Assembly: GCA_028285525.1 (NCBI GenBank) | Contig: JANQOZ010000106.1 | Location: forward strand, 18,822 to 82,821 | Length of the DNA stretch: 64,000 bases | Direction: 5' to 3' | From: Lysobacterales bacterium | GTDB taxonomy: Bacteria; Pseudomonadota; Gammaproteobacteria; Xanthomonadales; SZUA-38 | Part shown: in pieces, positions 1 through 61,784 of the stretch | Layout: each line of letters begins with the position of its first letter | How positions within the stretch are numbered: position 1 is the stretch's first letter | Program-made: the position numbers and the translations under genes | The notes under the pieces: model-generated | The model's input: the letters and a program-made list of their open reading frames with translations, nothing else | What the model was told of the DNA's origin: nothing | Database searches by the model: none

Positions 1-1647
1 GCCGATGCCATCAACCTGACGACGGAGGGCGACGGCGCAGCCTCCGAAGGCGACTTTGATATCAGCTCCAGCATCACCATTGAAGGCGCCGGCATCGGCC
101 GGAGTATCATCACTGAGGGACCGGCCGCTTCCCTGCTCCGGGCTTTCGACGTGCATGAGGGCGGCAGCCTGACGCTGCAGGACCTGACCGTGACTGGCTT
201 CGGCACAAATAGTTTCATTTTTGGCGGCGGCGCTGTCCGGATGGATGCCGACGCCACGGCCTCTCTGACCCTTCGCCGGGTTCATCTGCTGGACAACCAG
301 GCGGCGTTCGGCGCCGCAATCTTCGCCGACGCGAACGACGACCCGGCCCCCTCGCCCCTGGTGCAGATTTTCGACTCGGTGATCGGAGCCAACGTCTCCA
401 GCACCACCTCGCCGAGTACCTGCACGGGCGGCGGCCTGTTTCTGCGGGCACCCGCGATAATCGAAACCACCGATATCATCGACAACAGCGGGACACGCGG
501 TGGGGGCATCTGCGTTCGGGATACCCGTGTTGAGCTGCGAACCGTGACCCTGTCCGGCAACACCTATGACGCCAGCCAGTCCGGCGGCGCACTTTATGCC
601 TCCGAAGCGGATGTCGAGATCAGCGGTTCCAGAATCATCAACAATGGGGCCACCACCGGGGTCGGCGGCGCAATCAGGGCAGCCGGGGGGACGCTGACGG
701 TCTCCAACACCCGGATCAGCAACAACGAATCGCGCGGCGCGGCGCTGTTCCTGGAAGAAGGGATCACCGGCGATTTTTCCGGCTGCACGATCGCAGACAA
801 CGCCTCTTTCCCCTTGGCCGCTTTCGGTGCGCTGCTCAATTTTGATCGTACCGACGTCACGGCAAACATCGGCCCGGGATTTGAACTTTTCGATACCTTT
901 GTAACCGGTGTTGGGCTCACCATGAGCGGGTTCACGCGCCGCCTCGGCGGCGCCATCTTCGGCGACAACAGCACGCTGGATCTCGAGCAGTGCGTGTTCC
1001 GGGACAATCGGGCCCAGAACGTCGACGGTGAGTTTTCCGGCGTGGGCGGCGCGATCTACCTGCAGGACGGCACCCTGCAATTTCGGGCGTGCACCCTGGC
1101 AGATAACCAGGCCGACGCTGAGGGCGGCGCCATCGCCCTCTCCGGGGGACTCCTGCTGGCGCTGGAGAACACCACGTTCAGCGACAATGCGGCTGTCGGC
1201 GTCAGCGCCATCCAGGCGGCAAACGTCATGACGGTGGTCGACTTCGACCACGTCACGATTACCTCAACCGATCCTGGCCCAAGCGTCCAGACGCTGAATG
1301 CTGATTCGCGCTTTCACAACAGCGCCATCGACGGCGGCTGCGAGCTCTTTTTCGGCGGGGGTTTGCCCATCTCGCTGGGTGGTAACGTGGTCACCGACGC
1401 GTCCTGCCAGGTGGATCCGATGAGTGATACGCTGGTGCTGGACCTTGGGCTGCAGCCGTTAGGTGACTTCGGCGGGCCGACGCCGGTGCATCTCCCCGCA
1501 CCCATCAGCCCCGTGCTTGGGGTAGCTTCGGACTGTCCGCTGTCGGTCGACCAGCGGGGTGAACCCCGCACTAGCCCGTGTGACGCCGGTGCAGTGGAAG
1601 TGCAGCCGACGGACGACGCCGTGTTTGCCGATGGTTTTGAGCTGTAG
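1..1647 (+). CDS. Secreted right-handed beta-helix repeat protein (Pmp / choice-of-anchor-Q-like); 5' end lies outside the window
   Basis: Frame 1 is open from base 1 (ADAINLTTEGDGAASEGDFDISSSITIEGAG...); the ORF track only starts it at 151. Repeated beta-helix rungs are present: GGGAVRM, GGGLFL, GGGICV, GGALYA, GGAIRA, GGAIFG, GGAIYL, GGAIAL. The protein ends ...VFADGFEL-stop. Confidence 0.75.
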   Translation, partial: ADAINLTTEGDGAASEGDFDISSSITIEGAGIGRSIITEGPAASLLRAFDVHEGGSLTLQDLTVTGFGTNSFIFGGGAVRMDADATASLTLRRVHLLDNQAAFGAAIFADANDDPAPSPLVQIFDSVIGANVSSTTSPSTCTGGGLFLRAPAIIETTDIIDNSGTRGGGICVRDTRVELRTVTLSGNTYDASQSGGALYASEADVEISGSRIINNGATTGVGGAIRAAGGTLTVSNTRISNNESRGAALFLEEGITGDFSGCTIADNASFPLAAFGALLNFDRTDVTANIGPGFELFDTFVTGVGLTMSGFTRRLGGAIFGDNSTLDLEQCVFRDNRAQNVDGEFSGVGGAIYLQDGTLQFRACTLADNQADAEGGAIALSGGLLLALENTTFSDNAAVGVSAIQAANVMTVVDFDHVTITSTDPGPSVQTLNADSRFHNSAIDGGCELFFGGGLPISLGGNVVTDASCQVDPMSDTLVLDLGLQPLGDFGGPTPVHLPAPISPVLGVASDCPLSVDQRGEPRTSPCDAGAVEVQPTDDAVFADGFEL

Positions 1648-3087: not shown

Positions 3088-5379
3088 ATGAATGGACACA
3101 CGCAATCGCCGCCTTGGATCCCCGCGGTCGTCATGCTTTACGCGCTCGCGATCCCCTTGCTGCCGCTCGATCCAGCCGCAGCCCAGGGGCTGATCGACCT
3201 CACCGGCGCAAGCGGGGCCAACCGCGTACAGTTCAGCAATACCAGCACCAGCGCCGACCGTCTGGGACAGTCCGTTAGCGGCACCGGCGACATCAACGGC
3301 GACGGTTTTGATGACGTTATCTTCGGAGCTCCGCAGGCTGACGGCGGGTTGGGTGAGGTTTACGTCCTCTTCGGCAGCGCGACGCCTGTCGCTGCGCTCG
3401 CCACGGCGGATCTCGACGGCAGCAACGGCTTTCGAATTTCCAACGGAACCCTGGAGTTCAGTCTGGAGCTGGGCCTTGCGGTGACCGGTGGCGCCGACCT
3501 GACCGGCGACGGTCGCGACGATCTGGCCTTCTCGACCGACAACAACACCAACGGCAGTGTCTACGTGCTGCCCGGCCAGGTGGGCGCCTTTCCGGCGAGC
3601 GTTACGCTCGGGCCGACGCTGCCGACCGGGATTCGACAGCTGATCACACCTTTTACGAACGAGAACATCAGCGCCCTCGCCATTGCCGGAGACGTCAATA
3701 ACAACAACGTCGGTGATCTCCTGATCGGCAGCCAGGACGCTAGCGGTGGGAACAATACAGGCCAGGGCTATCTCGCTTTTGGCCCGGTGGCCAATGGTCT
3801 CAATCTCGGTTCGCTGAACGGGCTCAACGGCTTTGAAATTCCCGGGTTCCGGTTCGGTGATCGCTTAGGGAGCACCGTTGCTGCCGCCGGCAACTTCAAC
3901 AACGACAATTTCGACGATCTGATCCTCGGTGCACCCGGCGACGCCACTACCTCCGAGGACGCCGCTTATCTCCTCTATGGGTTCAGTGACAGCACCGTGA
4001 GCTCCCGCGGCCTGAACTTCTCGTTTGGCGACGAGGGCGGCTTTGCGATGCGGGCCAACGCCGCTGACGAGGCGAATGCCGGCGTCGTGGGCACGGCCGG
4101 TGACCTGAACGGCGATGGCTTTGACGATCTATTTATCGGTTCACCGGGCCCCACAAACGCCGGGGTCTACGTTGTTTTTGGGCAGGCGGCCGACTACCCG
4201 CCGGCTCTGGACCTGGCCAGCCTCGACGGCGGCAATGGTTTTCGCATCAACGATGTCGCCATCCTGGGGCAGCTGGGAGAAGCTATCAGCGCCATCGGGG
4301 ACATCAATGGTGATGGGTTCGACGATCTCGCGATCGGAGATCCGAGTCGCGGCCCCGGTGACCTGACTGTCCCGGGGGTTGTTTATGTAGTCTTCGGCGC
4401 CGCCACGTTCCCTGCGGTTCTCGAATTGACAGACCTTGCCGGGAGCAACGGATTTGTCCTCGAGGGGCCCGCCGGGAACCAGCGACTCGGCGCCGCGCTG
4501 GCTGGCGCTGGAGATTTCAACGACGACGGGCTGGATGATCTGGTGATCGGCGCGCCGCAGGACGGCGGCGGCCGGGGCTTTGTGCTGCTAGGCAATTCAG
4601 CACCGCAAAGCCTCGAGCCCGCCCTGGCCCTGGCGCCCACGCTCGAGGATTCCACGTCGGACGAGATCTTGGTTGGTGATCTGCTGGGCCCGGTCTATGT
4701 CGACACAGAGCCGCTGGCCGGCGTTGCGGTGATCGACAATCCGTTCAGTCCGTTCCAGGGCAGCTGGCAGTTCAACACCGGCGGCCCGTGGTTTCCGTTG
4801 GCCACCGGCCAAAGCGAAGGCAGCGCAACGGTTGTCCTGGCAGCATCTCGCATTCGCTACGTTCCGGCACCGAATTTTGCCGGCGGCCCGGTCCGCCTGC
4901 AGGTGCGGTTGTGGGACGGCAACTGGGGCATAGGTGGTGATAATCGGGACATCCGCGATGCGATCAATGCACTGGGCGGCTTCGGCGATGTTGTATCGCT
5001 CGAGATCAGCGTGACGCCCGTTAACGACCGCCCCATGCTGCTGATCTCCGATCCGCCGCCAGTGGTTGCCGGCGAAGCCCCTCAGGTCCTGCCGGGCTTC
5101 GCGTCGTTTAACCCGGGCGGCGGCGAGACGGACCAGACGGCAACCTACCGCTTTGTGTCGTTGACCAATCCGCAGCTTTTTCTCGATCTACCCAGCCTCA
5201 ACAGCAACGGTGACCTGACCTATACCCCCAATGCAGGCAGCGGCGGCACGTCCGAGGTGCAGTTTGTGGTGGAAGACTCCGGCGGCACGGCCAACGGCGG
5301 CCAAAACACCTCACAACCGGTCACCGTTACGTTCACCATTTTGGATACGCAGCTGTTTGCCGACGGATTCGAGGACTGA
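3088..5379 (+). CDS. Secreted FG-GAP (integrin-alpha-like) seven-repeat propeller protein with a C-terminal cadherin/VCBS-like region
   Basis: AGGAGG lies upstream of the ATG, followed by a signal-peptide-like N-terminus. There are seven copies of the GD[IFV]N.DG.DD[LV].[IF]G.P calcium-binding FG-GAP motif. VTPVNDRPML is typical of cadherin-like Ig domains. The protein ends LFADGFED-stop. Confidence 0.85.
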   Translation: MNGHTQSPPWIPAVVMLYALAIPLLPLDPAAAQGLIDLTGASGANRVQFSNTSTSADRLGQSVSGTGDINGDGFDDVIFGAPQADGGLGEVYVLFGSATPVAALATADLDGSNGFRISNGTLEFSLELGLAVTGGADLTGDGRDDLAFSTDNNTNGSVYVLPGQVGAFPASVTLGPTLPTGIRQLITPFTNENISALAIAGDVNNNNVGDLLIGSQDASGGNNTGQGYLAFGPVANGLNLGSLNGLNGFEIPGFRFGDRLGSTVAAAGNFNNDNFDDLILGAPGDATTSEDAAYLLYGFSDSTVSSRGLNFSFGDEGGFAMRANAADEANAGVVGTAGDLNGDGFDDLFIGSPGPTNAGVYVVFGQAADYPPALDLASLDGGNGFRINDVAILGQLGEAISAIGDINGDGFDDLAIGDPSRGPGDLTVPGVVYVVFGAATFPAVLELTDLAGSNGFVLEGPAGNQRLGAALAGAGDFNDDGLDDLVIGAPQDGGGRGFVLLGNSAPQSLEPALALAPTLEDSTSDEILVGDLLGPVYVDTEPLAGVAVIDNPFSPFQGSWQFNTGGPWFPLATGQSEGSATVVLAASRIRYVPAPNFAGGPVRLQVRLWDGNWGIGGDNRDIRDAINALGGFGDVVSLEISVTPVNDRPMLLISDPPPVVAGEAPQVLPGFASFNPGGGETDQTATYRFVSLTNPQLFLDLPSLNSNGDLTYTPNAGSGGTSEVQFVVEDSGGTANGGQNTSQPVTVTFTILDTQLFADGFED

Positions 5380-7970: not shown

Positions 7971-9182
7971 TCAGGGCAACTCGAAGCCGTCGCTGAACAC
8001 CGGATCTGGCAGCGGCGCCTGACAGCTGCTCGCACTCTCAAACCGGAGCACGCTGCTGCCCTGCAGGAGATACAGCTCGCCGTCTTCGTCTTCGCCGAAG
8101 CCGTAGATGCTGCCCGGTAGATTGTCGAACTCGCTGGCGCTCCAATTGCCCGGGCTGTCCTCGGTGCCGAAAAATACCCGCGCGGTGCAGAAGTCGCCGT
8201 ACACGTACGTGCCCTGTAGTCCCTCGATGCAGCCCCGGTAGCGGTAGCCGCCGGTGATTGAGCAGTTGCCGGCGACGTGGGGATACGTGAGGATCGGTTC
8301 GACGAAGCTGCCCGAGCAGCCGCCCGGCCCCGGGATGTCGCCCTCGCGGCAGTTCCAGCCATAGTTGGCGCCGCCTGGGTCACCGGCTGACTGAAAGGAG
8401 ACCTCTTCGCGGGAGCCGGCGCCGACGTCCGCCAGAAACAGGTCACCGGTGTCGCGGTCGAAGCTGAAGCGGTAAGGGTTGCGCAGACCGCTGGCCCAGA
8501 TTTCGTCTGGCTCTGACGTGCCGACGTTCGGATTGCCCGGTGGAATGGTGTAGGGCTCGGTGCAGCTGCCGGTGTCGCACGGATCGATCCGTAGCACCTT
8601 TCCCTGCAGATCCTGTTCGTCCTGGGACGTCGACGAGGTGGCGCCACCGTCGCCGAACGCAATGTAGAGGAATCCATCCGGACCGAAGTGCAGGTCACCA
8701 CCGTTGTGGTTGCCGGCGGCCTGCGCCTGCGTGAGGATCACAACCCGGCTCGAGAGATCGGCAGCATCCGGGTCGGAGGGTGACACGCTGAACCGCTCGA
8801 TCACCGATTCAAGCGGGTTCGGGCCGGAGCCGTCCCGGGTGTAATTGACGTAGAAGAAGCCATTGCTGGCGAAGTTCGGGTGAAACGCCAGCCCAAGCAG
8901 GCCGCCCTCAAAAAACGTGTCGACGTCGCTGGTGATATCGAGGAATGGGGAGCTGGCAAGCCCGGCGTCTTCCCGATAAATCCGGATAAGCCCATTGCGC
9001 TCGACGATGAACAGGCGCCCGGACCCGTCGCCGGCATGGCGCAGCGCGAGCGGTGTGGAAACGCTGATGTTGAGTGAGTTGAGCGTGAGATCCGCCGGTG
9101 GTGTACCCGCGTATCCCGCAGCGTGCACCAGGATCATTAACAGGCCTAAGAACGCAGTCCCGAACGTCAAAGAAAAGCGCAT
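7971..9182 (-). CDS. Secreted PQQ-dependent sugar (glucose/sorbosone) dehydrogenase-like beta-propeller
   Basis: Signal peptide is present. Family motifs: GLLGLAFHPNF, FFYVNYT, HNGGDLHFGPDGFLYIAFGDGG, GKVLRIDP, IWASGLRNPYRFSFDRDTGDLFLADVG. The protein ends VFSDGFELP-stop. Confidence 0.85.
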   Translation of the reverse strand: MRFSLTFGTAFLGLLMILVHAAGYAGTPPADLTLNSLNISVSTPLALRHAGDGSGRLFIVERNGLIRIYREDAGLASSPFLDITSDVDTFFEGGLLGLAFHPNFASNGFFYVNYTRDGSGPNPLESVIERFSVSPSDPDAADLSSRVVILTQAQAAGNHNGGDLHFGPDGFLYIAFGDGGATSSTSQDEQDLQGKVLRIDPCDTGSCTEPYTIPPGNPNVGTSEPDEIWASGLRNPYRFSFDRDTGDLFLADVGAGSREEVSFQSAGDPGGANYGWNCREGDIPGPGGCSGSFVEPILTYPHVAGNCSITGGYRYRGCIEGLQGTYVYGDFCTARVFFGTEDSPGNWSASEFDNLPGSIYGFGEDEDGELYLLQGSSVLRFESASSCQAPLPDPVFSDGFELP

Positions 9183-43088: not shown

Positions 43089-44015
43089 TCAAGGCGTTTC
43101 GAGTGAATCAGAAAATATGCGCGGGTGCTCGATCATCGTTCCAAAAAAAACGTCGAACTGGTTCTGCACCTCGCAGCTGGAAAATCTGAGTCCCTGGGTG
43201 AGTCGAGCGGCAGCCTGATAGCCGCCACCGGCTCGCGAAGCCGCCGCGCAGGTGCTGGAAATCGCCAGCGGGTCGCTGGGGAGCCTCAAACCGCCCGGGC
43301 GTGCTCCGGAAGTGTTGACGCCGACCAAGGCGTGCAGCATGTAGCGGCGCTCAGTCGCGGTGCCAAACTGCTCAGGCGAAAGGGCGAGCAATACCGCATC
43401 AAAATCGGCGCCTGCGGCCTCGGCAGCAGTGGTTGAGGTGACCGGTGAATCGGATAGGACACCCATACGAAAGGTGCACTCGATTCGATCGTCGGTCAGG
43501 ATGATGATCTGTTTGAAGGCATTCGGACGAAGCCATGCGGACCAACCCGCTGGCTGCTGAAAGAACTCGTCAACGATGGCGCCGTCGAACGTCTTGAACA
43601 TATTGCACCAGGTATCGAAACTCAGATTTCTCACGCTGTAGTGCTTGAAGTTTGGCGTGTTGGCTGGCTCCGGAGGATTGAAGGCGCAGGCGCCAAAGGG
43701 GATGGCGCCAAGCGGATTCTCGAAACACAGCTCTGCCGTATTGGTCCCAAAGTCACCGATCACAATCACCTGCGGATCCATGCCGGCGTCCTCGAGAGGC
43801 TGAACCAGACTCGGGTACAGGTTCTGCTCCAGCGCCGCGTTTTCTGTGCCCATGCTGACGGAATTGTCGACCGCAATGATGATGTCCCAGGGTGCGCTCA
43901 GGACGTCGGGGGAGACGTCACCGGCGGATGGCGAGCTGAAATATGTAAGAAAACTCATTACCCAAAGGCTCCGCAAGAATCCGCTGTGCATAACTGACTT
44001 CCCGTTTAACTTCAC
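43089..44015 (-). CDS. Hypothetical exported protein, possibly vWA-like
   Basis: 308 aa. IIAVDNSVSMG resembles a vWA MIDAS DxSxS motif. The protein ends IFSDSLETP-stop. The signal peptide is weak. Confidence 0.5.
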   Translation of the reverse strand: MKLNGKSVMHSGFLRSLWVMSFLTYFSSPSAGDVSPDVLSAPWDIIIAVDNSVSMGTENAALEQNLYPSLVQPLEDAGMDPQVIVIGDFGTNTAELCFENPLGAIPFGACAFNPPEPANTPNFKHYSVRNLSFDTWCNMFKTFDGAIVDEFFQQPAGWSAWLRPNAFKQIIILTDDRIECTFRMGVLSDSPVTSTTAAEAAGADFDAVLLALSPEQFGTATERRYMLHALVGVNTSGARPGGLRLPSDPLAISSTCAAASRAGGGYQAAARLTQGLRFSSCEVQNQFDVFFGTMIEHPRIFSDSLETP

Positions 44016-46847: not shown

Positions 46848-46946
46848 AGCTGCTCCGATGGTGACAGGTGAGTCGAAGCATGAGATGACGTGGGACAAGC
46901 TGTTGTGACGCCAATCACAGTGCAGCAACCCTGCCTGTCTTCCACG

Positions 46947-48914
46947 TCAATTTGGCGTCTCAAACGAATCTCGGAAGAGGTCGTTCGACGTTGCCCTGAC
47001 CGACATGTAGGCGTTGTACTCCGCCATGAACGTGGCGTCCGTGGCGATGTTGCGACCGCCGATGTAGGTCAGCTGGCCGGTGCCGCTGACGGTACCGTCC
47101 ACGTCGATCATCAGGCTGTCTTCCAGGTCAACGCCTTCGCGACCCATGTACCAGAATCCGGGGGTGTCGATGAGCGTGATATTGGACGCCCGGAGATAGG
47201 GAGAGGTGTCCAGAACATCCTTCCACATCGTAAACGCGCCGGGTGCAAAGCCGACAAAGGTCACGTTATCCACCCGCGGGTTGTCCCCGCCGCGTCGTCC
47301 GCCCTGAAAATGCATGCCGCCGCCGAGGTGTCGACGATTCCCGATAATTTGATTCTCGCCGCCGATGAGATTGTCGGTCTGCTGAATGGCGACGATATTC
47401 TCAATGTTGGATTGGTGGTTGAAAATCGCCATGGAGCTGTCGGCGATGATTGAGTCTCGAAAGGTGTGGTTGCGATTTTCCAGCCACGCGCCGGCCAGGG
47501 AATTCTTGTAGGCGGTGAACTGCTCGAAGACCACGTTCTTACCGAGACCCGCGTAGTGGGTCACCATCAGCCCGCTGGTGCGGGTCTTCGGACCATAGGT
47601 GGGAATGCCGCCACCGGGCAGCACGCGATAGTGGGAGTGAGCGACGTTGCCGCGAAAAATGTTCGGCGTCTCGTTGTACACAATAAACTGCTGATCCCGA
47701 TGGCCGATAACCTGCGAATCGAAGAAAAACCCGATGCCCTGGGCCCCGCCCGCTGCGTGGTTGTCCTCGATGATGTTGTGATAGCTACGCATCCAGAACC
47801 CTGACGGGCGATGCTCCGCCTGGTCCGACTCAGTGTGGTCATCGCGCGGAAACGAGAAGTCTTCGTTGGGTCGCCGCTTGTACAACACCGCCAGGTTTCT
47901 GAGATAGGCGTTGCCCACCTCGGTGCCTGTCTCGGACGGCACGTAGGCATGACCCCACACGTCGTAAACAACGTTGTCGCTCACCAGCACGTTGTTCACC
48001 TCGTGGGTGACCACACCGCGCTGAAAACTGTTGTGGATGCTGGTGTCGCGGATGTAGCTGCCGCTCGCATCCAGCCCGGGATCTGAGGGGCCATGCCAGT
48101 GGGCTGGATAGCGGCCCTGTTTACGGAGCTGGCCGCCGCGCGTCATCTCGACTCCCGAGATCTGTACCTGGCTGTGAGGCATAAACATGGCGTGGAAGCC
48201 AAAGTGATCTGCCTCGGAGGACTCGGGCGCCTGGATCCGAACGTTCCGGGTCAACAGGCCGACCTCAGCTCGCACGTCGAGGTCGCGACCGACAATCGTT
48301 TTGACATGGCCGAGGTGCGGATAGGCGAGCGCCGGCGTAACCGACACGGTATTCCCATCGATCGCCGTAATCGACAGCTTCTCAGATTCTTCAGCATGGA
48401 AACCGCTGGCGGCAATCACGATTTCTTCCCCGATCGACCAGCCTGGCGCAGTTGCCAGCGTCAGCTCAGTGTCACCCGGATTCACGTCGGCCGCGAGCTG
48501 CGTCCAGCTCGTTTTGGCCGCGCTGGCGCCGTGCAGGGATAGCGAGCCGCCGCCCATGACCCCAAGCACCCGGTTGCCCATGGCCCCGCTACCCAGGTCG
48601 GGTTCGGTCAGCTCGATCACCGCGTTGGCGGTGAAGGGTTGAGTGGCGGTGCCCACCTCCAGAGTGCCGCCTGTGTGAATCATGATGCGCGCCACCTCCA
48701 GGCGTAAGTCCTGATCCGCAAAGGTCAGCGTCCCCATGACGTCGAGTGAACCCAGCGGTGGCGGCGAGACGTCGAGCGTGATGACCTGGCCAGCTGGAAT
48801 CGTGACGTTCTCACCAATCCCCGGAACGCCACCCGGCCAGCTGGCCGGGTCCGACCAGTTTCCGGCGTTAGCAGCCACCGCAAGAAAAAGCAGGGAAAGC
48901 GCTAGAAGCTTCAT
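46947..48914 (-). CDS. Secreted G8-domain / right-handed beta-helix protein
   Basis: The ATG at 48914 gives the signal peptide MKLLALSLLFLAVAANAG. The G8 domain signature is NWSDPASWPGGVPGIGENVTIPAGQVITLDV...LGSLDVMGTLTF...IHTGGTLEVGT. Beta-helix repeats follow. The protein ends LFRDSFETPN-stop. Confidence 0.8.
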   Translation of the reverse strand: MKLLALSLLFLAVAANAGNWSDPASWPGGVPGIGENVTIPAGQVITLDVSPPPLGSLDVMGTLTFADQDLRLEVARIMIHTGGTLEVGTATQPFTANAVIELTEPDLGSGAMGNRVLGVMGGGSLSLHGASAAKTSWTQLAADVNPGDTELTLATAPGWSIGEEIVIAASGFHAEESEKLSITAIDGNTVSVTPALAYPHLGHVKTIVGRDLDVRAEVGLLTRNVRIQAPESSEADHFGFHAMFMPHSQVQISGVEMTRGGQLRKQGRYPAHWHGPSDPGLDASGSYIRDTSIHNSFQRGVVTHEVNNVLVSDNVVYDVWGHAYVPSETGTEVGNAYLRNLAVLYKRRPNEDFSFPRDDHTESDQAEHRPSGFWMRSYHNIIEDNHAAGGAQGIGFFFDSQVIGHRDQQFIVYNETPNIFRGNVAHSHYRVLPGGGIPTYGPKTRTSGLMVTHYAGLGKNVVFEQFTAYKNSLAGAWLENRNHTFRDSIIADSSMAIFNHQSNIENIVAIQQTDNLIGGENQIIGNRRHLGGGMHFQGGRRGGDNPRVDNVTFVGFAPGAFTMWKDVLDTSPYLRASNITLIDTPGFWYMGREGVDLEDSLMIDVDGTVSGTGQLTYIGGRNIATDATFMAEYNAYMSVRATSNDLFRDSFETPN

Positions 48915-49195
48915 AGACCATTCCTTTCTCGATCGGCAGCGGGAAGCGGTGCCGGACTGGGATTCACTATCGAAGCAACGTTTGACAGTCGTATAGAACA
49001 GAATCAACGTGCGCCGCGCAGACGCGCAGTGAATTGTCCAATCTGTGACCCACTTCCGAAGAAAAGCGGTTTGGGAGAATTGGAAATGCATCGACAGGCC
49101 GGTCATCCGGCGTGCCTCTCGGAGCCACCCCTTTAGTTGCCGAAAAATCGGCCGTTACTTTAGGTGTCGTCTAACGGGAGTGGGCAAAGGAACGC

Positions 49196-50392: not shown

Positions 50393-50400
50393 CTCCCTAG

Positions 50401-51180: not shown

Positions 51181-51737
51181 TGTGTTTCTCCAGTGATTTG
51201 AGGCGCGGCATCCAGGAGACGGTTCAGGTCCTCAGACAGGCGTTTGCGGAGCCGGTGCAGGGCAACACCGACGGCGTTTGCGCTCATTCCTAGCTCACGA
51301 CCGATTTCTGCTTGATCAAGGTCCGCAAAACACTGCAGCGAAAACAGCTTGGCGTCGCGTTCAGAAAGCGCCGCGACGGCGTTACGAAGCGCCTCGGCAC
51401 GCTGGCGTTGGACCAGCTGTTCGTCGGGTTCTTCGGGCTGCGTTAGATCGACCGGAAGCTGCGACGGATCCCGGCGCCTGCGCAGCCGATCAATCGCCCG
51501 ATTCACCGCCATCTTCTTGAGCAATGCCGGCCAGCTTCGAACTTCCGCTGGACGTTTCCTTAAGAGCTTCTCTGCGATGTCCTGGGCAACATCTTCGGCT
51601 TCGGCCACGTCGCCAAGCACCCTGGCCGCTGCGCTGATCATCAGGCCCGCATGGGCACGAAGCGCCTCGATGAGTTCCTCCTCATCGACGCGGCTGGGAA
51701 AGAAGCGCGCCATCAGGTCCCGCGTTCGGGTGGTCAT
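51177..51737 (-). CDS. ECF sigma factor (third in the window)
   Basis: The ATG at 51737 has GAGGA 7 nt upstream; the track's TTG at 51767 was rejected. Region 2 is EDVAQDIAEKLL...AVNRAIDRLRRR and region 4 is DLDQAEIGRELGMSANAVGVALHRLRKRL. Confidence 0.9.
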   Translation of the reverse strand: MTTRTRDLMARFFPSRVDEEELIEALRAHAGLMISAAARVLGDVAEAEDVAQDIAEKLLRKRPAEVRSWPALLKKMAVNRAIDRLRRRRDPSQLPVDLTQPEEPDEQLVQRQRAEALRNAVAALSERDAKLFSLQCFADLDQAEIGRELGMSANAVGVALHRLRKRLSEDLNRLLDAAPQITGETQ

Positions 51738-51806
51738 TTCATCGTCCTCTCGGCTGCCGTTCGACAAGGAGACGTGGGTCTGCGGACTTTCTTACACACG
51801 CAAGAC

Positions 51807-51845
51807 AAAAAAAGGGGTCAGGTTCGGACATTGAACCTGACCCCC
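51807..51845 (-). terminator. Rho-independent terminator downstream of the beta-helix/PPC gene
   Basis: 12-bp stem ggggtcaggttc (51814-51825) / gaacctgacccc (51833-51844) with a 7-nt loop. On the minus strand it is followed by a run of seven U (A-run 51807-51813). It lies 22 nt after the stop at 51867. Confidence 0.8.
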
Positions 51846-51866
51846 GTTTTGGCAGCACCCGTGCCG

Positions 51867-53978
51867 TCAGGCGGAATCGATCTCTAGCAGGTAGCGGTTT
51901 TGGATGTCGCCGACGCCAAACACGCGCAGCGTGTATTCGCCGCCCTCGCCAGGGGGAACCAGATAATTGACCGATTCGTTATTGGTTGTGGAGTCGCCTC
52001 GAGCGACCACAGTGCCAGAGGGGTCGAGCAGCTCAAAGTCAATGTTGCCGTCGGCATGATCAAAAGTTGCCGTGAGAAACACGACCTCATTTTCCTCCGC
52101 CGTAAACCGAAAGAAATCGTCATTGCCACCGCAGCTTACAAAGCTGTCGCGCTCGAACGGCGGTAGGATGACTGTCGGCGCCGCCATGGAGTCGTTGGGT
52201 TCCCAGCCGTCGTCAAGCGGGCAGAGCTCTTCGAGGCCGTCGGAGAATAGTTTGCTGGTTGCGCCCACCTGGCTGAAAAATACCCGGCCGAAGAATTCGT
52301 TCTCGTTGGCGTTGGGTGATTCCAGGATCCGCAGCGTGTCGAAGACAATTGGCGTCCATATTCCGACGAAGTTGTCTACGGACGGGTTCGGCGTTCGAAA
52401 CGAGAGCGTCCCGACTTCCCGGCCGAGTAGAAACATCACGGCGTCAAAGGTGGAAGGGCTGGATCCGCCGGATGCGTCGTCAAACTCAATACCCAGCCCT
52501 CGAACCGATTGGCCAATTGCCTGGATATTCAGGTTCTCGGCGTCGTTGATCGCCAATTCGATGTTGTTGTCGCCGGGAAAGTCCGCCGGCCAATTGCTGA
52601 AATTGAGCGACGAGGGTGCCACCGCCGAGAGCGTGACACCGCCGCTGACAAAAGGCTCGCCCGGGCTGCTGTTGTTGGGATAGGGGTCTGATACAACAAA
52701 CCCCGCCGGTGCGCCTTCAAACACCTCCCGACGGGTGATCAGCAGCGGCGCCTCGGCGTCAAACTCATAGGCCCCGATGTCCGGGCCGCCGCCAATTCGT
52801 CGGGTCGCGCCGTCCGCGTCCAGCCGGAAGGAGCCATCACCGCTGGCACCCCTATCGATCAGGAATGACTCTTTGCGCAGCCGGAAATCGGCACCGGCAA
52901 TGTCAACAAACTGAGGATCAAGCGCCATCACGCCGTCAGCCGCCGAGCCGTCCAGCCCCACATCCGGCTGACCGTTGTTGAAGCTGTTGTTGTTCAATAC
53001 CAGCAGGCTCGAGGCAGCACCGCCAAGGTTGAGCCGATACCCCGACTGGCGCGCTTCGGAAACCGTGTTGTTGATGATCCTGAGCGAGATGACGGCGCCA
53101 GCGTCCACCACAAAAACGTCAATGCCGTCACCCATGCGTTGGATGTCGTGCAGCGTGTTGTGTTGAAAGTCAGCGTTGACCTCCGCCGCCTCTTCGACGC
53201 GAAGCTGAATCCCACTGGCGTTGCCGCAGGAACATCCGGCGACCGAGTAAACCACGTTGCCGTAGGCCCGCAGGTCGTGTGTCCCGGTGCCGATAATTCG
53301 GTAGCTCAGACCGGAGTTGCTCTCTTCCGGCAGGCTGGTGGTGACAATGTTGTCGAGAAAGTCGACAGTCGTTGCAGCGCCCTCGCTCTGCACCCGGATG
53401 CCTTGCCCGGTGCTCGCAATATGATTGCGTTCGATGACCGTCGTGGTCGGAACCTCCACCCGCAAATCGATGGCGCCGGAATTATTGTTGTCCAGCTGGA
53501 ACGTCATCCGGTTGTTTCTGAGCAGCAGCTCATGGCCCGTGCCAAACCGCACCACGCCGGTCAGCCGAGCGTTGTCGAACGTCAGATCTTCGACGATGAC
53601 CCGCTGGTTGTCACCGCTTATGCCCGTTTGCCCCAGACCACCAAAATCGATACCGCGAGTGTTTTCGCTGCCGCCGATCACGGGCGTAAAGCCGGGAGCG
53701 GGACGCAGCCTCAGGGTGCGTCCGATGAACAGCTGTTCGTCGATCGGCGTGTTGGTCGCAATGTCGATGGTGTCACCCTCGGCGGCTGCGGAGATGCAGC
53801 CCTGGAGCGTCGTGTCGCAGGGGGCCGGGCCTGGGTAAATGAGCTGGGCTGCCCGCACCGATCCGGCGATTGACAGGACCGCAAGCGCAAACAGCGCTGG
53901 AAGGAGGGAGGTGGTGGCCTGCACAAGGAGATTCGTTCTTCTGCCCCAAATCAAGGGCGCGATAGTCGGCTTGGTCAT
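51867..53978 (-). CDS. Secreted right-handed beta-helix protein with a C-terminal bacterial pre-peptidase (PPC) domain
   Basis: The ATG at 53978 has GAGGA upstream, followed by a signal peptide (...LLPALFALAVLSIAGSVRAAQ). Beta-helix repeats follow. The last ~115 aa (WEPNDSMAAP...GGNDDFFRFTAEENEVVFLTATFDHADGNIDFELLDPSG...GEYTLRVFG) match the PPC-domain pattern. LFSDGLEE sits immediately before it. Confidence 0.8.
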   Translation of the reverse strand: MTKPTIAPLIWGRRTNLLVQATTSLLPALFALAVLSIAGSVRAAQLIYPGPAPCDTTLQGCISAAAEGDTIDIATNTPIDEQLFIGRTLRLRPAPGFTPVIGGSENTRGIDFGGLGQTGISGDNQRVIVEDLTFDNARLTGVVRFGTGHELLLRNNRMTFQLDNNNSGAIDLRVEVPTTTVIERNHIASTGQGIRVQSEGAATTVDFLDNIVTTSLPEESNSGLSYRIIGTGTHDLRAYGNVVYSVAGCSCGNASGIQLRVEEAAEVNADFQHNTLHDIQRMGDGIDVFVVDAGAVISLRIINNTVSEARQSGYRLNLGGAASSLLVLNNNSFNNGQPDVGLDGSAADGVMALDPQFVDIAGADFRLRKESFLIDRGASGDGSFRLDADGATRRIGGGPDIGAYEFDAEAPLLITRREVFEGAPAGFVVSDPYPNNSSPGEPFVSGGVTLSAVAPSSLNFSNWPADFPGDNNIELAINDAENLNIQAIGQSVRGLGIEFDDASGGSSPSTFDAVMFLLGREVGTLSFRTPNPSVDNFVGIWTPIVFDTLRILESPNANENEFFGRVFFSQVGATSKLFSDGLEELCPLDDGWEPNDSMAAPTVILPPFERDSFVSCGGNDDFFRFTAEENEVVFLTATFDHADGNIDFELLDPSGTVVARGDSTTNNESVNYLVPPGEGGEYTLRVFGVGDIQNRYLLEIDSA

Positions 53979-54061
53979 ACGGTTCCTCGTTGATCCACCA
54001 AGTCTCACCCTAGCGGCGATTAGCCTTTTTGACTACAGGGTGCATGAAGCTGGTGTGGCCA

Positions 54062-57136: not shown

Positions 57137-57138
57137 CG

Positions 57139-58260: not shown

Positions 58261-58558
58261 TTCCTCAGCAGACGTTCAGTCCGCTTCTCCCGGGTGGCGG
58301 TTGGCGAGCTTCATTTGACCAAAGTGAGCATGCACATTGAAACTGCACGATTCTGTGAACAACTTAATTATCGCCCACTTTGCCCGTAAGTTTTGGTTAT
58401 GGTACGCGCTTTGAGGAAGGTCGAACCGCAAAGTAAGCGGCAAGCTGGAGATACGGTTCGCCGTAAGCCGGATCAGCTCTGACAAAATGTCGACGGATGG
58501 CACGATAGCGTGCTCTTATTGATTCAGACCTGCACGAATATTCGGGCATGATCAGACC

Positions 58559-58843: not shown

Positions 58844-58925
58844 CCGCCGTTTGCCGGTCAGCTATCCGCCGATTGACCCCTGAGGCAAATTCGCAGTCGA
58901 GCATGGTAATTGCGACGGTTGCGTT

Positions 58926-61784
58926 CTAGCCTTCAAACCCATTCCTGAACAGGAGCCGGCCTGCCGGGCGTGGCAGTGGGCGCAGCGACCCGGCGGGTGC
59001 GGAGGCGGGAACGTTGGGGTCACGCATGCCGGACCGGTTGCCGTCAAACGAAAAGAGCTCCCAGCCGGTTGACTGATCCTCTGGTGGTGGCAGCCCCTCC
59101 AAAACAGCGGGCGGCAGGACGGACAGGTCCTCAGCTTCCTGCGTACCTGCAAAATATAGCCGCGTGCCCGCAGCAATGGTGAGCTGTTGGACAGATCCGT
59201 CAGTAAATAGTGGCGGCGCCGTCGCGAGTTCGTTGCGAAAGATCGAAAAATGATTGTCTTCCTCCGCCATCAGCCACAGCTCGCTCTGGTAGCTTTGGGA
59301 TGAGGGAAACCGCTGCCTCACATAGGCAAAGAAGCCGTTGAAGCTCTGAAACTCGCCGAAGAGGTTATCGGAGATGTCGTCAGACCAGGGAACCATGACG
59401 GCCTGAGTGCCCGCCGGCGTTCCGTCCGTACGCCAGAAGGTGGCGCTGCGGTTACTGGTGTTGTTGACGGCGAAGTAGACAAAACCGTTGTGCAGCGCCG
59501 AGCGATTGAGGCTGTCGTTGCCGATGCTGTGCGGCAGCATAAACAGCCGGTGAGTACCGGCAGGCGTGCCGTCGCTGACGTAGACCCCACCCGCGTCGTT
59601 GTCATACATCAGCGCCAGGCCGCCCAGGCCGCGGTTGTTGAGCAGTCGCAGCCCATTGGGCGGCGCATCGCTGCCCAGCCAGCTGCTTACGGGTGTGGCC
59701 AGGGTTTCATCGTTGGCAACAAAGTAAACGTCTCGCGCGGCCGGCGCGTTGGCGTCGATGAACAGCCCGTTTCGCATCGGTGCGGAACCCCACACCACGC
59801 CGGAAGCGGGAAGCTCGATGTTCTGGGTGCCGCCTGGGTAGCCATCGCTACGCCAGACAAAACCATTGGGGGCACCGCCAACATCCGGCAGGGCAACAAA
59901 ATACAGCTGCTCGTCGACGCTGTTGAGTATTTGATAACCCGCAGCCGGGATACCGTTATAGGTCGCTCTGGCGAAAACGCGGGTTTGCGCCGGCGTGCCG
60001 TCGCTTTGCCACAGCGCCAGGTCGGTCAGGCCATCACCATCGGGTGGCCGGGCCCGGAAGATCTGCAGGTCACCCAGCTGAAACGGGTCACTTTGCATGA
60101 GCGGCTCAAGATTGGTCTCCGTCAGCGCCCCGGTTTTGGCATCCAGACGATACCACTGGGTTTCGATGCCCTTGGCGTGCGCCGATTTATTGCCGACAAA
60201 AAGGATCAGAAACGCGTCGTCGACCGCAAAAGCAGCGTTGACGCTGCGGTCATTGCGGCAGAGAAAGGGGGTCTCGCCGTTGATGTTGACAGGTGATGGC
60301 GGGCCAACAGGGCGGTGGAGAAAATACGTTGTCAGGCGCTGGCTTCCATTGACCAGCCCGTTGTAGGCGCAGCTCAAGGCCACGTCTCCCGAGGTTGCCA
60401 CAATCCGGCTACCGCTGTCTTCAGGCCCCTCGACAGCCTCACCCACCGACTCAGCCTCCACCTCGCTGAGCGGAACCAGCAGCTCAAAAAGCTCGCTGCC
60501 TTCTACCAGGGACAAGGATGACTGGCGCAGGCGAAAGTAGTTGAGCACGTCCAGCCGACCCGCGCTGTCTGTTCCCATCCGGGCATACGTTCGGGAATAG
60601 AGATTGACAAAAAAACTGGTTCCAAACTCGGTCGTCATCGGGACATCGATGACCACACTCTCCGGAAAGGCCTCCAGGGGCTGCGGCTGACCGCCGGAAA
60701 TCTGCACCACTCTCTCGGTTCGCTGCAGTTCGATGAAATCGGATTCAGTGGGGTCTCGGAATCCCCGGTAGTAGTGGTCGTCATCAGGGGCTGGTGTTTC
60801 CAGGCGCAGAAGGTCCAGCGAGCGATAAAAGGTGGCCGGCGATGCTCCGGCCCACTCGGCGCCAAACAGGTCGTCTTCCAGCGTCGGCACCCCGTCACTG
60901 GTGAACAGCAGGGATTCGGCCTGGCCCCAGCTGCAGTCCAGGACGTTTGGATCAAAAGCGCAGCTAAAAGAGCTCAGCGAATCCGGCGGGTGGGCCCAGG
61001 AGACATAGTTGGCGTATTTTAGACTGAACAGAACCGGGACCGAGGTAGGAACCTCTGCGCCGTCAGGAAGATCACCGCGAAGCACCAGCTGGTATGGCAG
61101 CGTGACCAGCCCTTCGTGCTCCAGGCTGTCGACGTTGACGTAGTCAGCCGGCGCATTGCGATCCGGCAGCGTCCCGATCGGGTCGAGCACGCTGTTGCGT
61201 CCGACGCTCACCCTCACGCTGTTCAGTAAACCCGTGCCCGACCCACCTCGATTTCTGAACTTGTCCGCAAAACTGTACCCCTCGGTGTGCCAGCCTCGAG
61301 GCGTCAAATCAGGTGCCCAGAAGTTGTTCTCGGCGGTAGCCGGGAACGGCTCATAGGGTGAAAAAAAGCCTGGACCCGTGAAGTCGTCATCGAACCGGGT
61401 TCCAATGCATTGGAGGCCGAAATATCCCGGCGACAGATTAAAAAACGCGCCCTGACACCACTCTTCGGGCGTGATATCAAAAGAAAGCAGGGGTTCCTGG
61501 GTAGGCAGGGTTGTGTTGTAGATCTCCGGTCCGCCGGGATTGTAGAACACGCCGGGGTTCAGATCGCCTTCTTCAATTCGCTGTACGTATAGCCCCTCGT
61601 CACCAAAAGAGGGGTAGAAATCCAGCGCTTCAAAGTCAGACCGCAGTTCATATTTAGCGCCGCGCAGAAAGGCCGTGCTCGGCCAGGTCCCCAGGATCTG
61701 CGCAGGAGCACCACCTTGCGCCCAGGCGCCTGAAACCATGAGCAGCCCCAGGGCTGCCAAAGAGTGAATAGTCCGAACAGCCAT
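58926..61784 (-). CDS. Secreted ELWxxDGT-repeat beta-propeller-like protein
   Basis: Signal peptide MAVRTIHSLAALGLLMVSGAWAQG. Repeats: LALWQSDGTPAQT, FVWRSDGYPGGT, VYVSDGTPAGT, TFWRTDGTPAGT and ELWLMAE. The protein ends LFRNGFEG-stop. Confidence 0.8.
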   Translation of the reverse strand: MAVRTIHSLAALGLLMVSGAWAQGGAPAQILGTWPSTAFLRGAKYELRSDFEALDFYPSFGDEGLYVQRIEEGDLNPGVFYNPGGPEIYNTTLPTQEPLLSFDITPEEWCQGAFFNLSPGYFGLQCIGTRFDDDFTGPGFFSPYEPFPATAENNFWAPDLTPRGWHTEGYSFADKFRNRGGSGTGLLNSVRVSVGRNSVLDPIGTLPDRNAPADYVNVDSLEHEGLVTLPYQLVLRGDLPDGAEVPTSVPVLFSLKYANYVSWAHPPDSLSSFSCAFDPNVLDCSWGQAESLLFTSDGVPTLEDDLFGAEWAGASPATFYRSLDLLRLETPAPDDDHYYRGFRDPTESDFIELQRTERVVQISGGQPQPLEAFPESVVIDVPMTTEFGTSFFVNLYSRTYARMGTDSAGRLDVLNYFRLRQSSLSLVEGSELFELLVPLSEVEAESVGEAVEGPEDSGSRIVATSGDVALSCAYNGLVNGSQRLTTYFLHRPVGPPSPVNINGETPFLCRNDRSVNAAFAVDDAFLILFVGNKSAHAKGIETQWYRLDAKTGALTETNLEPLMQSDPFQLGDLQIFRARPPDGDGLTDLALWQSDGTPAQTRVFARATYNGIPAAGYQILNSVDEQLYFVALPDVGGAPNGFVWRSDGYPGGTQNIELPASGVVWGSAPMRNGLFIDANAPAARDVYFVANDETLATPVSSWLGSDAPPNGLRLLNNRGLGGLALMYDNDAGGVYVSDGTPAGTHRLFMLPHSIGNDSLNRSALHNGFVYFAVNNTSNRSATFWRTDGTPAGTQAVMVPWSDDISDNLFGEFQSFNGFFAYVRQRFPSSQSYQSELWLMAEEDNHFSIFRNELATAPPLFTDGSVQQLTIAAGTRLYFAGTQEAEDLSVLPPAVLEGLPPPEDQSTGWELFSFDGNRSGMRDPNVPASAPAGSLRPLPRPAGRLLFRNGFEG

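Follow-up and report, generated by a model that had tools for sequence, protein, structure and literature searches.

A short C-terminal tail motif of exported proteins lies internally, ahead of a PPC-type domain, in a beta-helix protein of a Lysobacterales bacterium

Background

A 64,000-nucleotide stretch of contig JANQOZ010000106.1 from a Lysobacterales bacterium (here called the window) contains a gene whose exported product carries the short string KLFSDGLEE directly before a C-terminal pre-peptidase (PPC) type domain, and strings of the same kind (tags) end six other proteins of the window. The question raised by this locus is whether the tag is a mark at which the PPC domain is removed, as the initial annotation proposed, a part of one of the neighbouring domains, or a module in its own right. 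To our knowledge, exoprotein selection and retention after Sec export are poorly understood in Gram-negative bacteria outside the Bacteroidota, and we know of no linear signal for type II secretion.

Results and discussion

Architecture of the target protein

The product of the target gene is arranged in the order signal peptide, beta-helix with choice-of-anchor Q, middle domain, tag and PPC domain, with the following features:

51867..53978, minus strand: target gene, encoding an exported protein of 703 aa from the ATG at 53978, or of 713 aa from an alternative GTG at 54008
53847..53978, minus strand: signal-peptide-like N-terminus, aa 1-44, ending LSIAGSVRA and followed by AQ, judged from the sequence by eye
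52761..53846, minus strand: right-handed beta-helix with choice-of-anchor Q at its end, aa 45-406
52272..52760, minus strand: middle domain of about 170 aa, aa ~407-569, without a Pfam family
52227..52253, minus strand: internal tag KLFSDGLEE, aa 576-584 (703-aa numbering)
52215..52226, minus strand: spacer of four residues, LCPL, from the tag to the PPC start, read from the sequence
51870..52214, minus strand: C-terminal PPC-type domain, aa 589-703, 115 aa to the stop, opening with DDGWEPNDS (aa 589-597)

The translation agrees with the initial annotation in placing LFSDGLEE at 52227-52250, ahead of a C-terminal PPC-type domain of about 115 aa. The label "beta-helix protein" given there was correct but incomplete, as the separate middle domain lies between the beta-helix/choice-of-anchor Q part, which extends to about aa 406, and the tag. 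The beta-helix part matched Pfam Beta_helix and DUF5123 and was modelled by AF2 with a pLDDT of about 90, confidence beginning only at aa 45; the NCBIfam choice_anch_Q model matched aa 364-406 with 28.6 bits (cutoff 25). The orthologue P0001, with 93% identity, is annotated as "choice-of-anchor Q domain-containing protein". The target had no match to a protease family in either Pfam or NCBIfam. The middle domain was modelled at a pLDDT of 40-74 with beta strands as far as aa 569; its final strand is EFFGRVFFS, and the tag begins 6 aa later. The same middle domain is present, in differing architectures, in P0002, P0006, P0008 and P0018-P0024. The genes adjoining the target encode an ECF sigma factor and an RND pump, and the tag genes are dispersed. 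No candidate tag-processing enzyme was seen among the neighbour genes checked.

The Pfam model PF04151 matched the target at aa 621-688 (model positions 3-70 of 70) with an E-value of 1.1e-3 and 20.3 bits, under the gathering score of 25.9 bits. A phmmer search with the last 143 aa, tag and PPC included, against 1.84 billion representatives gave 3407 matches at E<=1e-3, dominated by tandem-PPC proteins. The three that were checked (P0262, P0278 and P0269) proved to be genuine PPC proteins (PF04151 at E 1e-29 to 1e-30), and therefore the PPC assignment of the target stands. PPC domains typically start with D-x-aromatic-E-x-N-D; the target has both this start and the position at the C-terminus of an exported protein. 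A PDB sequence search with the tag and PPC domain found no match.

Terminal tags in the window

The six further tags are found at the ends of the following proteins:

ORF 151..1647, tag 1621..1641, plus strand: VFADGFEL before the stop, directly behind a choice-of-anchor Q domain; the ORF start lies beyond the window edge
ORF 3088..5379, tag 5353..5373, plus strand: LFADGFED before the stop; FG-GAP / Big_9 protein
ORF 7971..9182, tag 7980..8000, minus strand: VFSDGFELP before the stop; PQQ-type glucose/sorbosone dehydrogenase (GSDH)
ORF 43089..44015, tag 43098..43118, minus strand: IFSDSLETP before the stop; 308-aa protein with no family match
ORF 46947..49106, tag 46959..46979, minus strand: LFRDSFETPN before the stop; G8 / CEMIP beta-helix protein
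ORF 58926..61784, tag 58932..58952, minus strand: LFRNGFEG before the stop; 952-aa protein with a sub-threshold ELWxxDGT-repeat match

All six ORFs were confirmed. The pattern [ILVM]F.[DN][GS][FL]E occurred 7 times in the 38 window ORFs (18,035 aa), in six cases within 3 aa of the stop codon. By comparison, 5000 within-protein shuffles gave an expectation of 0.024 motifs anywhere and of 0.0002 in terminal position (within 10 aa of the stop). The codons differ among the seven tag copies, and the DNA downstream of them is unrelated. The differing codons therefore reflect conservation at the protein level and not a DNA repeat, and an origin from a DNA repeat or mobile cassette is ruled out.

Signal-peptide-like N-termini were found on all complete tag proteins of the window. 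The tags sit behind at least six upstream domain types, namely beta-helix/choice-of-anchor Q, FG-GAP with Big_9, the GSDH propeller, G8 with a CEMIP helix, the sub-threshold ELWxxDGT protein and unassigned folds; the tail is thus an autonomous module. The initial annotation held the motif to be a domain-boundary or recognition element and no chance string, and this is upheld by the shuffling result, the conservation in homologues described below and the boundary position. The motif is genuine, stands at a domain boundary and is under selection.

Equivalence of the internal and terminal tags

The internal tag has the counterparts KLFSDSLEE in P0001 and DIFSDSLEE in P0018. Two other relatives, P0002 and P0024, have a middle domain as in the target and then stop right after the tag, without a PPC domain, their C-termini being NENEFFGTVAISREPMPWFVFENGFER and NENEFFGTVFTGQTRLPDLPFADGFEDL, respectively; the P0002 gene (from Wenzhouxiangella) is complete and lies inside its contig. 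Judged from these sequences, the internal tag of the target is the positional equivalent of the terminal tags, and it is internal because a PPC domain has been fused directly behind it. Together with the spacer it reads FSDGLEELCP, which resembles the short Pro-ended terminal tails FELP, LETP, FEGP and FEIP. In the AF2 model, aa 574-622, tag included, form a low-confidence linker (pLDDT 25-33), a value that could stem from the shallow 18-sequence alignment on which the model was built.

Conservation of the tail in GSDH homologues

About 116 of the closest 120 homologues of the window GSDH bear a short or long tail. By a loose tail pattern they comprise 86 long tails, 25 short ones, 4 longer extensions and one 10-aa tail without W; the remaining 4 of the 120 lie outside the pattern, and one of them, P0030, is by eye a long-form variant. 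In an alignment of 117 sequences, of which one is identical to the window protein and the others share 51-73% identity with it, conservation reaches at least 90% at F396, D398, G399, F400 and E401. The residues following the Glu in long-form tails (SGDTSAWSxxVP) are conserved as well, with a final Pro in 57 of 86. The alignment indicates that the tail is under strong purifying selection. Terminal tags with genuine stop codons are conserved in more than 100 homologues.

The AF2 model of the GSDH, built on the 117-sequence alignment, has a mean pLDDT of 92.3, with 93-98 in the propeller and the last strand at aa 377-382. The tail (aa 384-403) has a pLDDT of about 56 and is undocked. As predicted by these structure models, the tag is not docked onto the preceding fold, and neither in the beta-helix nor in any other domain does it form a buried strand; a buried core strand of the beta-helix would, according to the initial annotation, have refuted its reading.

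Distribution across lineages

Two forms of the tail were recognised. The short form, [ILV]FxDGFE plus 0-9 aa, is found in Lysobacterales, Wenzhouxiangellaceae and the metagenome-assembled genome (MAG) analysed here, and the long form, [ILV]FxDGFESGDTSAWSxxVP with 19-20 aa, in Thermoanaerobaculia and Holophagae of the Acidobacteriota; the short gammaproteobacterial form corresponds to the first 7 residues of the long tail. A genome scan for [hydrophobic]FADGFE found at least 120 loci, those listed being mostly from Lysobacterales, Dokdonella, Rhodanobacteraceae, Wenzhouxiangellaceae and Thermoanaerobaculia/Holophagae; the scan was seeded on one codon-restricted variant (FADGFE), and the taxon proportions among the loci listed are indicative only.

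The distance to the stop was 0-9 aa for 27 of the 30 tags in gammaproteobacterial ORFs and 7-13 aa for 29 of the 31 in acidobacterial ORFs, and the position is thus terminal in about 90% of the gammaproteobacterial cases. Natural tails have 0-13 residues behind the tag, and in some the number exceeds 20; an exactly terminal position is therefore not necessary. Copies directly behind signal peptides (loci L061 and L071) were found as well, and a purely C-terminal function cannot explain everything.

Tags followed by a PPC domain were rare. Behind another internal tag in Gammaproteobacteria, at locus L050, stands a domain of 86 aa. Among the best 150 of the 3407 PPC matches the strict tag was present once, and there it overlaps the PPC start; within the DNA compared for the tag loci, the PPC start motif occurred only in the target. 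In a metagenome scan for the tag followed by E-x-N-D, the matches listed (at least 120 loci) were due to chance or to chorismate synthase (GIEFGDGFE...GSEHND).

Pfam and NCBIfam scans of the tail peptides (E<=10) returned no model, the searchable literature held nothing relevant on the tail strings, and a PDB search with the tail peptide gave chance-level HasA matches only. The tail motif is apparently undescribed so far.

Relation to a longer domain in other phyla

The same 15 residues open a domain of about 180 aa in proteins of Chloroflexota and Actinomycetota (class-C proteins). The start of this domain, xFADGFESGDLSAW, matches the tail consensus IFxDGFESGDTxxW. Sub-gathering matches to it were obtained with PF14099 (E 0.0096, from model position 1, on FE) and CBM_4_9 (E 0.11, from model position 2), and PDB entry 2ZZJ matched at E 0.012 (PDB E-values 0.012-0.03). 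These matches weakly suggest that the class-C domain is a jelly roll. From the CBM4-type fold and the positions of the weak Pfam alignments we take FADGFESGDLSAW to be its putative strand 1.

The full domain was found behind the motif in other phyla only. The initial annotation had raised the question whether homologues carry a domain after the motif, the terminal copies being truncated forms. The motif does open a downstream domain in other phyla; the second part of the idea failed, since terminal tags have their stops in the interior of contigs and homologues share these stops, which rules out truncation or assembly error.

Proposed role of the tag and alternative explanations

The explanation that we favour, with a little more confidence than doubt, is that the tag is the standard C-terminal tail module of this lineage for Sec-exported proteins, that it became internal in the target through fusion of the PPC domain, and that it is read in trans. 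The module would have the consensus hydrophobic-F-x-[DN]-[GS]-[FL]-E, often closed by Pro, and would act as a flexible short linear motif recognised by an envelope component for sorting, surface retention or secretion. It is the flexibility, conservation and position of the tail that point to recognition in trans. The target tail would probably be active from within the linker, the PPC domain being an added accessory module, perhaps trimmed off and perhaps not; trimming would yield a product that matches the tag-terminated homologues.

According to the initial annotation, the tag is instead a processing mark: the PPC domain or other trailing residues would be cut at or after the motif, leaving the tag as the mature C-terminus, and the terminal-tag genes would encode an "already processed" form. 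Secreted proteases usually lose their PPC domain by cleavage once they have been secreted, and yet some retain it (PMC3327674). By analogy, PPC cleavage in the target is plausible, and homologues that stop exactly at the tag, its place in a low-confidence, probably exposed linker and the variable 0-13 aa after the Glu are all in keeping with a processing site. The target, however, matched no protease family, and conserved long-form residues after the Glu, mostly Pro-ended, are not what would be expected of a discarded remnant. Tag and PPC also occur together too seldom (in 1 of the 30 gammaproteobacterial tags, and with overlap in the single PPC match noted above), and we regard a processing mark as unlikely. 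The associated suggestion, in which PPC-processed forms would be the ancestors or models of the six terminal-tag proteins, is not supported: terminal tags are overwhelmingly the norm in several phyla with no PPC domain nearby, as the distances to the stop and the scarcity of tags among PPC matches attest.

The tag might also belong to one of its neighbours. If it were the N-terminal strand of a downstream domain, here the PPC domain, the terminal copies would be functionless vestiges of lost jelly-roll or PPC-like domains. The opening of the class-C domain by the same 15 residues, the matches to PF14099 and CBM_4_9, beginning at the motif or 3 aa ahead of it, and the resemblance of the PPC start D-x-[FWY]-E-x-N-D to DGFESGD (the PPC protein P0269 opens with LFDDGFESNDT) all fit such an origin. 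But the PPC domain of the target has its own start, DDGWEPND, 4 residues past the tag, and the tag is therefore an extra element; relatives without a PPC domain keep it, the stops are genuine and inside contigs, and five core residues are conserved in the GSDH alignment where decay would be expected. We consider vestiges improbable. That the preceding domain ends in the motif as its last strand or cap, a generic fold terminator with no partner in trans, seems to us likewise improbable: in many proteins the motif starts 3-10 aa past the last strand or last Cys of that domain, and F-x-[DN]-G-F could make a tight hairpin, yet at least six domain types precede it and AF2 leaves the GSDH tail undocked at far lower pLDDT than the propeller. 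The shortness of the motif is the one point in favour of chance similarity or a compositional artefact, which is of practically negligible probability; it is refuted by the shuffling, by the GSDH alignment and by conservation in homologues, with the copy kept in P0001 and P0018 and positionally equal to the terminal tags of P0002 and P0024.

Returning to a tail module read in trans, a bolder form of it, possible if rather doubtful, is that the tail represents a new class of C-terminal sorting or retention signal, without a transmembrane segment, for Sec-exported proteins and read by an envelope component. The short form would then serve exoproteins of Lysobacterales, Wenzhouxiangellaceae and related marine Gammaproteobacteria, and the long form those of Thermoanaerobaculia/Holophagae. 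A possible mechanism is donor-strand complementation, in which the tail would insert into a receptor domain without that strand; the tail corresponds to the opening residues of a putative jelly roll and therefore might fill the missing strand of the receptor. Should the tail be such a signal, the tag with PPC domain would be a natural test of whether it works inside a linker or only after trimming. The internal copy shows that the module tolerates a downstream domain or perhaps requires its trimming, and this position makes the target a handy natural construct for studying position dependence. Carried by hundreds of exported enzymes and adhesin-like proteins, a conserved flexible tail would provide a direct experimental handle on exoprotein selection and retention, and would aid secretome annotation of abundant environmental lineages.

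Comparison with known C-terminal signals

Like the PPC extensions of secreted proteases, the target has a PPC-type domain (about 115 aa) at the C-terminus of an exported protein. The known extensions sit on proteases, whereas the target carrier has no protease family match and its Pfam score is sub-gathering; PPC proteins generally have no upstream tag, and the target has one. The first residues of CBM4_9 and PL20-type (ConA-like) jelly rolls, with their "NGxFExGxxxW" start, resemble the long tail. Such domains, however, comprise about 150-200 aa when complete, whereas the window proteins stop 1-3 aa past the motif or enter the PPC domain, and the Acidobacteriota tails have just the first residues of a jelly-roll-like domain (7-20, the window included) and then stop.

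The C-terminal domain of type IX secretion (T9SS; Por_Secre_tail) is likewise a C-terminal element common to unrelated exported proteins. It differs in being a folded beta-sandwich of about 70-100 aa in the FCB group, against 7-20 aa for the tag element (7-9 in the window); Por_Secre_tail had no Pfam match in the seven tag proteins, and we know of no T9SS in Lysobacterales. Proteins of type I secretion (T1SS) have an uncleaved C-terminal signal, often with RTX repeats, and no N-terminal signal peptide. The complete tag proteins do not fit this type, as their N-termini are signal-peptide-like, and Pfam found no RTX repeats in the tag proteins. The beta-signal of outer membrane proteins (OMP) places an aromatic residue, usually Phe, last in a beta-barrel. 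The last residues of the terminal window tags (L, D, P, P, N and G) and the soluble beta-helix, propeller and Ig-type folds of the tag proteins do not fit it.

The sortase-type signals (PEP-CTERM/exosortase, IPTL-CTERM, GlyGly-CTERM/rhombosortase and MYXO-CTERM/myxosortase) share with the tag a short C-terminal motif on many unrelated Sec-exported proteins and a lineage-specific expansion. These signals are tripartite, with a motif, a transmembrane helix and a basic cluster (PMC11980579). The six terminal tags of the window, in contrast, have 0-3 residues after the motif and neither a hydrophobic helix nor an Arg cluster, and the NCBIfam sorting-signal models had no match in the tag proteins and tails. 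The "choice-of-anchor" families are named, in NCBIfam, for their interchangeable anchors. In P0003 and P0004 the choice-of-anchor Q domain is followed by a motif, a hydrophobic helix and Arg residues, as in IPTL-CTERM; in window ORF 151..1647 and P0010 the tag comes right behind this domain, and P0011-P0017 (676-714 aa) have it at their C-terminal end. Comparison of these homologues suggests that the tag occupies the slot of the transmembrane-type anchors and would be interchangeable with them.

Domain organization and genomic context of the target protein

The beta-helix protein studied here (the target) carries internally the peptide KLFSDGLEE, a copy of the tag (hydrophobic-F-x-[DN]-[GS]-[FL]-E) that ends six other ORFs of the window. 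Translation placed LFSDGLEE exactly where the initial annotation had it, and all six terminal-tag ORFs that it reported are present.

Features of the target (703-aa numbering)
51867..53978, minus strand: ORF, 703 aa from the ATG at 53978
After a signal-like N-terminus: right-handed beta-helix, ending in the choice-of-anchor Q (choice-Q) domain
aa 364-406: choice-Q domain, NCBIfam match above cutoff
After the choice-Q domain: middle domain, ~170 aa, without family; last predicted strand EFFGRVFFS, aa 561-569
aa 576-584, minus strand: internal tag KLFSDGLEE (LFSDGLEE = 52227-52250)
LCPL: spacer from the tag to the C-terminal domain
Last 115 aa: C-terminal domain, beginning DDGWEPNDS

The N-terminus resembles a signal peptide. 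The start is ambiguous (53979-54008, minus strand): a GTG at 54008 would give 713 aa by adding ten residues, VRLGGSTRNR, ahead of the ATG, and in homologues P0001 and P0298 the start corresponds to this ATG. The C-terminal domain scored 20.3 bits against Pfam PPC, below the 25.9-bit threshold. A phmmer search with the last 143 aa against 1.84 billion representatives gave 3407 matches at E<=1e-3, and since all three matches checked were true PPC proteins (PF04151, E 1e-29 to 1e-30), the earlier PPC assignment is sound.

The target is surrounded by an ECF sigma factor and the family-less ORF that overlaps it, an RND efflux pair and a GGDEF protein, none of which points to a dedicated partner. 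The ECF-type sigma-70 gene (51177-51767, minus strand) shares 4 bases with the 259-aa family-less ORF (50401-51180, minus strand), possibly an anti-sigma factor; the pair (50401-51767) has the same orientation as the target and lies directly downstream of it.

Frequency of the tag in the window

The pattern [ILVM]F.[DN][GS][FL]E was found seven times in 38 ORFs (18,035 aa), six of the copies no more than 10 aa from the stop codon, against 0.024 expected anywhere and 0.0002 expected terminally from within-protein shuffles. The seven copies differ in their codons and are followed by unrelated DNA, which rules out a DNA-repeat origin; selection therefore acts on the peptide. This excess over chance and the conservation across homologues support the initial reading of the motif as a genuine boundary or recognition element. 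The tag genes are clustered, with three in the first 9 kb (1-9182) and four at 43-62 kb (43089-61784); lying between them are two further, family-less signal-peptide proteins (5434-6381 and 44193-45983) and a PD40-repeat protein (6399-7367).

The tag in homologues of the target

The named proteins nearest to the target come from Wenzhouxiangella and Congregibacter MAGs. Tag and PPC are kept together in P0001 (93% identical to the target), as LFSDSLEELCPLDDGWEP, and in P0018 (87%), as IFSDSLEELCPADDGWEP. P0002 (Wenzhouxiangella, 596 aa), whose gene is complete and within its contig, has the target's beta-helix and middle domain and then ends ...FVFENGFER*; P0024 ends ...NENEFFGTVFTGQTRLPDLPFADGFEDL* immediately after its middle domain. 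In P0020 and P0021 the middle domain comes first and other sequence follows, ending in IFGSGFEGVP* and IFDGDFEAPPEP*, respectively. LIFADGFE plus 9 aa stands straight after the choice-Q domain in P0010, a complete gene, and P0011-P0017, all of 676-714 aa, have tags at the end. Judging by P0002, P0024 and the other tag-terminated homologues, the internal tag of the target is therefore positionally equal to the terminal tags.

In two choice-Q homologues, P0003 and P0004, the choice-Q domain is followed by a C-terminal end (AIPIPTLGFFALAALGGILLLTALIQLRRR and VEPVPAVGPQGLAGLALLLLGAAGLVLRARR, respectively) that consists of a motif, a hydrophobic helix and Arg residues. These look like transmembrane-type sorting anchors, similar to IPTL-CTERM, at the place where other homologues have the tag, and by sequence comparison the tag fills the slot held by such anchors in related proteins. 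Three middle-domain homologues without the tag (P0006, P0022 and P0023) have thrombospondin type-3 repeats followed by GLP[VI]WLL[FY]xxSQ*, which may be another terminal motif.

Distribution of the tag

One genome per GTDB species was scanned for [hydrophobic]FADGFE (TNTTCGCNGAYGGNTTCGAR), and each match (at least 120 loci) was read in frame. Three classes were distinguished, described here among the matches listed. Class A (Lysobacterales, Dokdonella, Rhodanobacteraceae and Wenzhouxiangellaceae) has the motif plus 0-9 aa before the stop; counting the copies in the window, there are 30 strict tags, of which 27 are terminal and three are not, namely those of the target (+120 aa), L050 (+86 aa) and L072 (+29 aa). 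Class B (Thermoanaerobaculia, Holophagae and other Acidobacteriota) has the tail [ILV]FADGFESGDTSAWSxxVP*, with the stop 7-13 aa past the Glu in 29 of 31. In class C (Chloroflexota, Actinomycetota, Vicinamibacteria and a few others), FADGFESGDLSAW[ST] opens a ~180-aa domain, located behind Pro/Thr linkers or FN3/Ig domains, or straight after the signal peptide (L071).

Class C loci
L029:2591-3418
L067:7177-7914
L086:6783-7523
L108:2268-3887
L112:1806-3806
L071:983-2032

At L061:5695-6108(+) and L071:983-2032(-) the motif directly follows the signal peptide (e.g. ...GAEVLPSESVFADGFEAESAG, Rhodanobacteraceae MAG), and therefore the tag is not solely C-terminal. L050:2575-3033(-), from a Lysobacterales MAG, has DUF11 repeats, LFADGFE and an 86-aa family-less C-terminal domain, a second gammaproteobacterial internal tag again followed by a small C-terminal domain. 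The long tail, as [ILV]FxDGFESGDTSAWSxxVP*, occurs on very many acidobacterial exported proteins (Thermoanaerobaculia/Holophagae loci L004, L005, L008, L019, L035, L056 and others). A metagenome scan for tags with a PPC start behind them was dominated by chorismate synthase (L121, L132, L154, L178 and others; PF01264, E 8e-17), whose GIEFGDGFE...GSEHND mimics the DNA pattern of a tag plus PPC start.

Long and short tails in the dehydrogenase family

The family of the window's sugar (glucose/sorbosone-type) dehydrogenase (7971..9182, minus strand, ending VFSDGFELP*) has both tail forms and links classes A and B. Its 120 closest homologues were sorted by a loose tail pattern.

Tail forms in 120 dehydrogenase homologues
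Long form (7-16 aa past the Glu, with W): 86
Short form (0-6 aa past the Glu): 25
More than 16 aa past the Glu: 4
10-aa tail without W: 1
Pattern unmatched: 4

The tail is present in about 116 of the 120; of the four proteins that the pattern missed, P0030 (ending IFSDAFESGDTSAWN) is by eye a long-form variant. Pro is the last residue in 57 of the 86 long forms (among P0027-P0144). In an alignment of 117 sequences (51-73% identical to the window dehydrogenase, except one identical copy), F396, D398, G399, F400 and E401 are each at least 90% conserved. Both tails are under strong purifying selection, and the short gammaproteobacterial form appears to be a 19-20-aa tail that has been shortened.

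Structure models

The AlphaFold2 model of the target, built from 18 aligned sequences, gave pLDDT ~90 for the beta-helix, 40-74 for the middle domain, 25-33 for aa 574-622, which contain the tag, and 44-68 for the PPC domain. Because this alignment is shallow at the tag, the dehydrogenase was modelled as well, from the 117 sequences, nearly all with the tail. In that model (mean pLDDT 92.3) the final strand of the propeller spans aa 377-382, and residues 384-403, which form the tail, stay undocked (pLDDT ~56). According to AlphaFold2, therefore, the tag is neither the preceding domain's last strand nor a buried core strand, the latter being the outcome that the initial annotation had set against its own reading; in the models its behaviour is that of a flexible short linear motif. 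Many proteins have a Cys 3-10 residues upstream of the tag (window 7971-9182(-), P0011-P0021, L001, L019, L033, L090; e.g. ESASDCxxxxIFADGFE and ELCSDVIFANGFE), which suggests that a disulfide may pin the preceding fold just ahead of the tail.

Origin of the tag

The initial annotation suggested that the terminal-tag proteins may be descendants or mimics of PPC-processed forms. In proteases, PPC domains are as a rule cut off following secretion, though some are retained (PMC3327674), and by analogy the target's tag could become the mature C-terminus once its PPC is removed. Neither Pfam nor NCBIfam gave a protease family match in the target. Natural tags are followed by 0-13 or more residues, so it is not evident that the tag has to be exposed at the extreme C-terminus. 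Descent from, or mimicry of, PPC-processed forms is not supported: in several phyla tags are as a rule terminal and have no PPC domain in their vicinity. Among the 150 PPC proteins listed of the 3407 matches, only P0269 has a strict tag, and its LFDDGFESNDT forms the beginning of the PPC domain; in the DNA examined for PPC start motifs, the target's was the only one. A simpler history would be that a tag-terminated exoprotein acquired a PPC domain behind its tail, and the target's ...FSDGLEELCP is still like a complete short tail closing in Pro.

As to the tail itself, CBM4/9-type jelly rolls usually have NG/DG-x-F-E-x-G-x-x-x-W as their first strand. The class C domain (alignment A3) weakly resembles PL20/CBM4_9 jelly rolls, matching Pfam Polysacc_lyase PF14099 (E 4e-4 to 1e-2; one alignment puts model position 1 on the motif's FE), CBM_4_9 (E 0.11, from model position 2 and three residues before the motif) and PDB 2ZZJ, a PL20 glucuronan lyase (E 0.012-0.03). 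Outside the six scan-seed residues, the consensus of the tail (SGDTxxW) and that of the domain (SGDLSAW) agree at 5 of 7 positions, and the relationship between the two is clear. The tail looks as if it were the opening part of such a domain, left orphaned; its conservation argues against a decayed vestige. The domain's own last strand (VVFDDAAF, LFFDAFES) also looks tag-like.

Proposed role and comparison with known sorting signals

We infer that tag proteins would be exported by Sec and that the tail, dangling off the folded cargo, would be recognized in trans by a component of the envelope, serving to sort, retain or secrete the protein. This proposal draws indirect support from the tail's autonomy over unrelated folds, its strong conservation, its flexibility in the models, its expansion in certain lineages (in the window, 7 of 38 ORFs) and the slot it shares with transmembrane-type anchors in choice-Q homologues. 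More speculatively, it might complement a jelly-roll receptor by donor strand.

No Pfam or NCBIfam model matched the tails even at E<=10, and a literature search for the motif strings found no paper. Sortase-type signals are defined by a transmembrane helix and a basic cluster, whereas the tail has neither, which rules out this type; nor could it be placed among T9SS CTDs, T1SS signals or OMP beta-signals. If a sorting signal, it is of a different kind, and we rate it among the C-terminal tags on exported proteins, with a motif that appears new to Pfam, NCBIfam and the searched literature.
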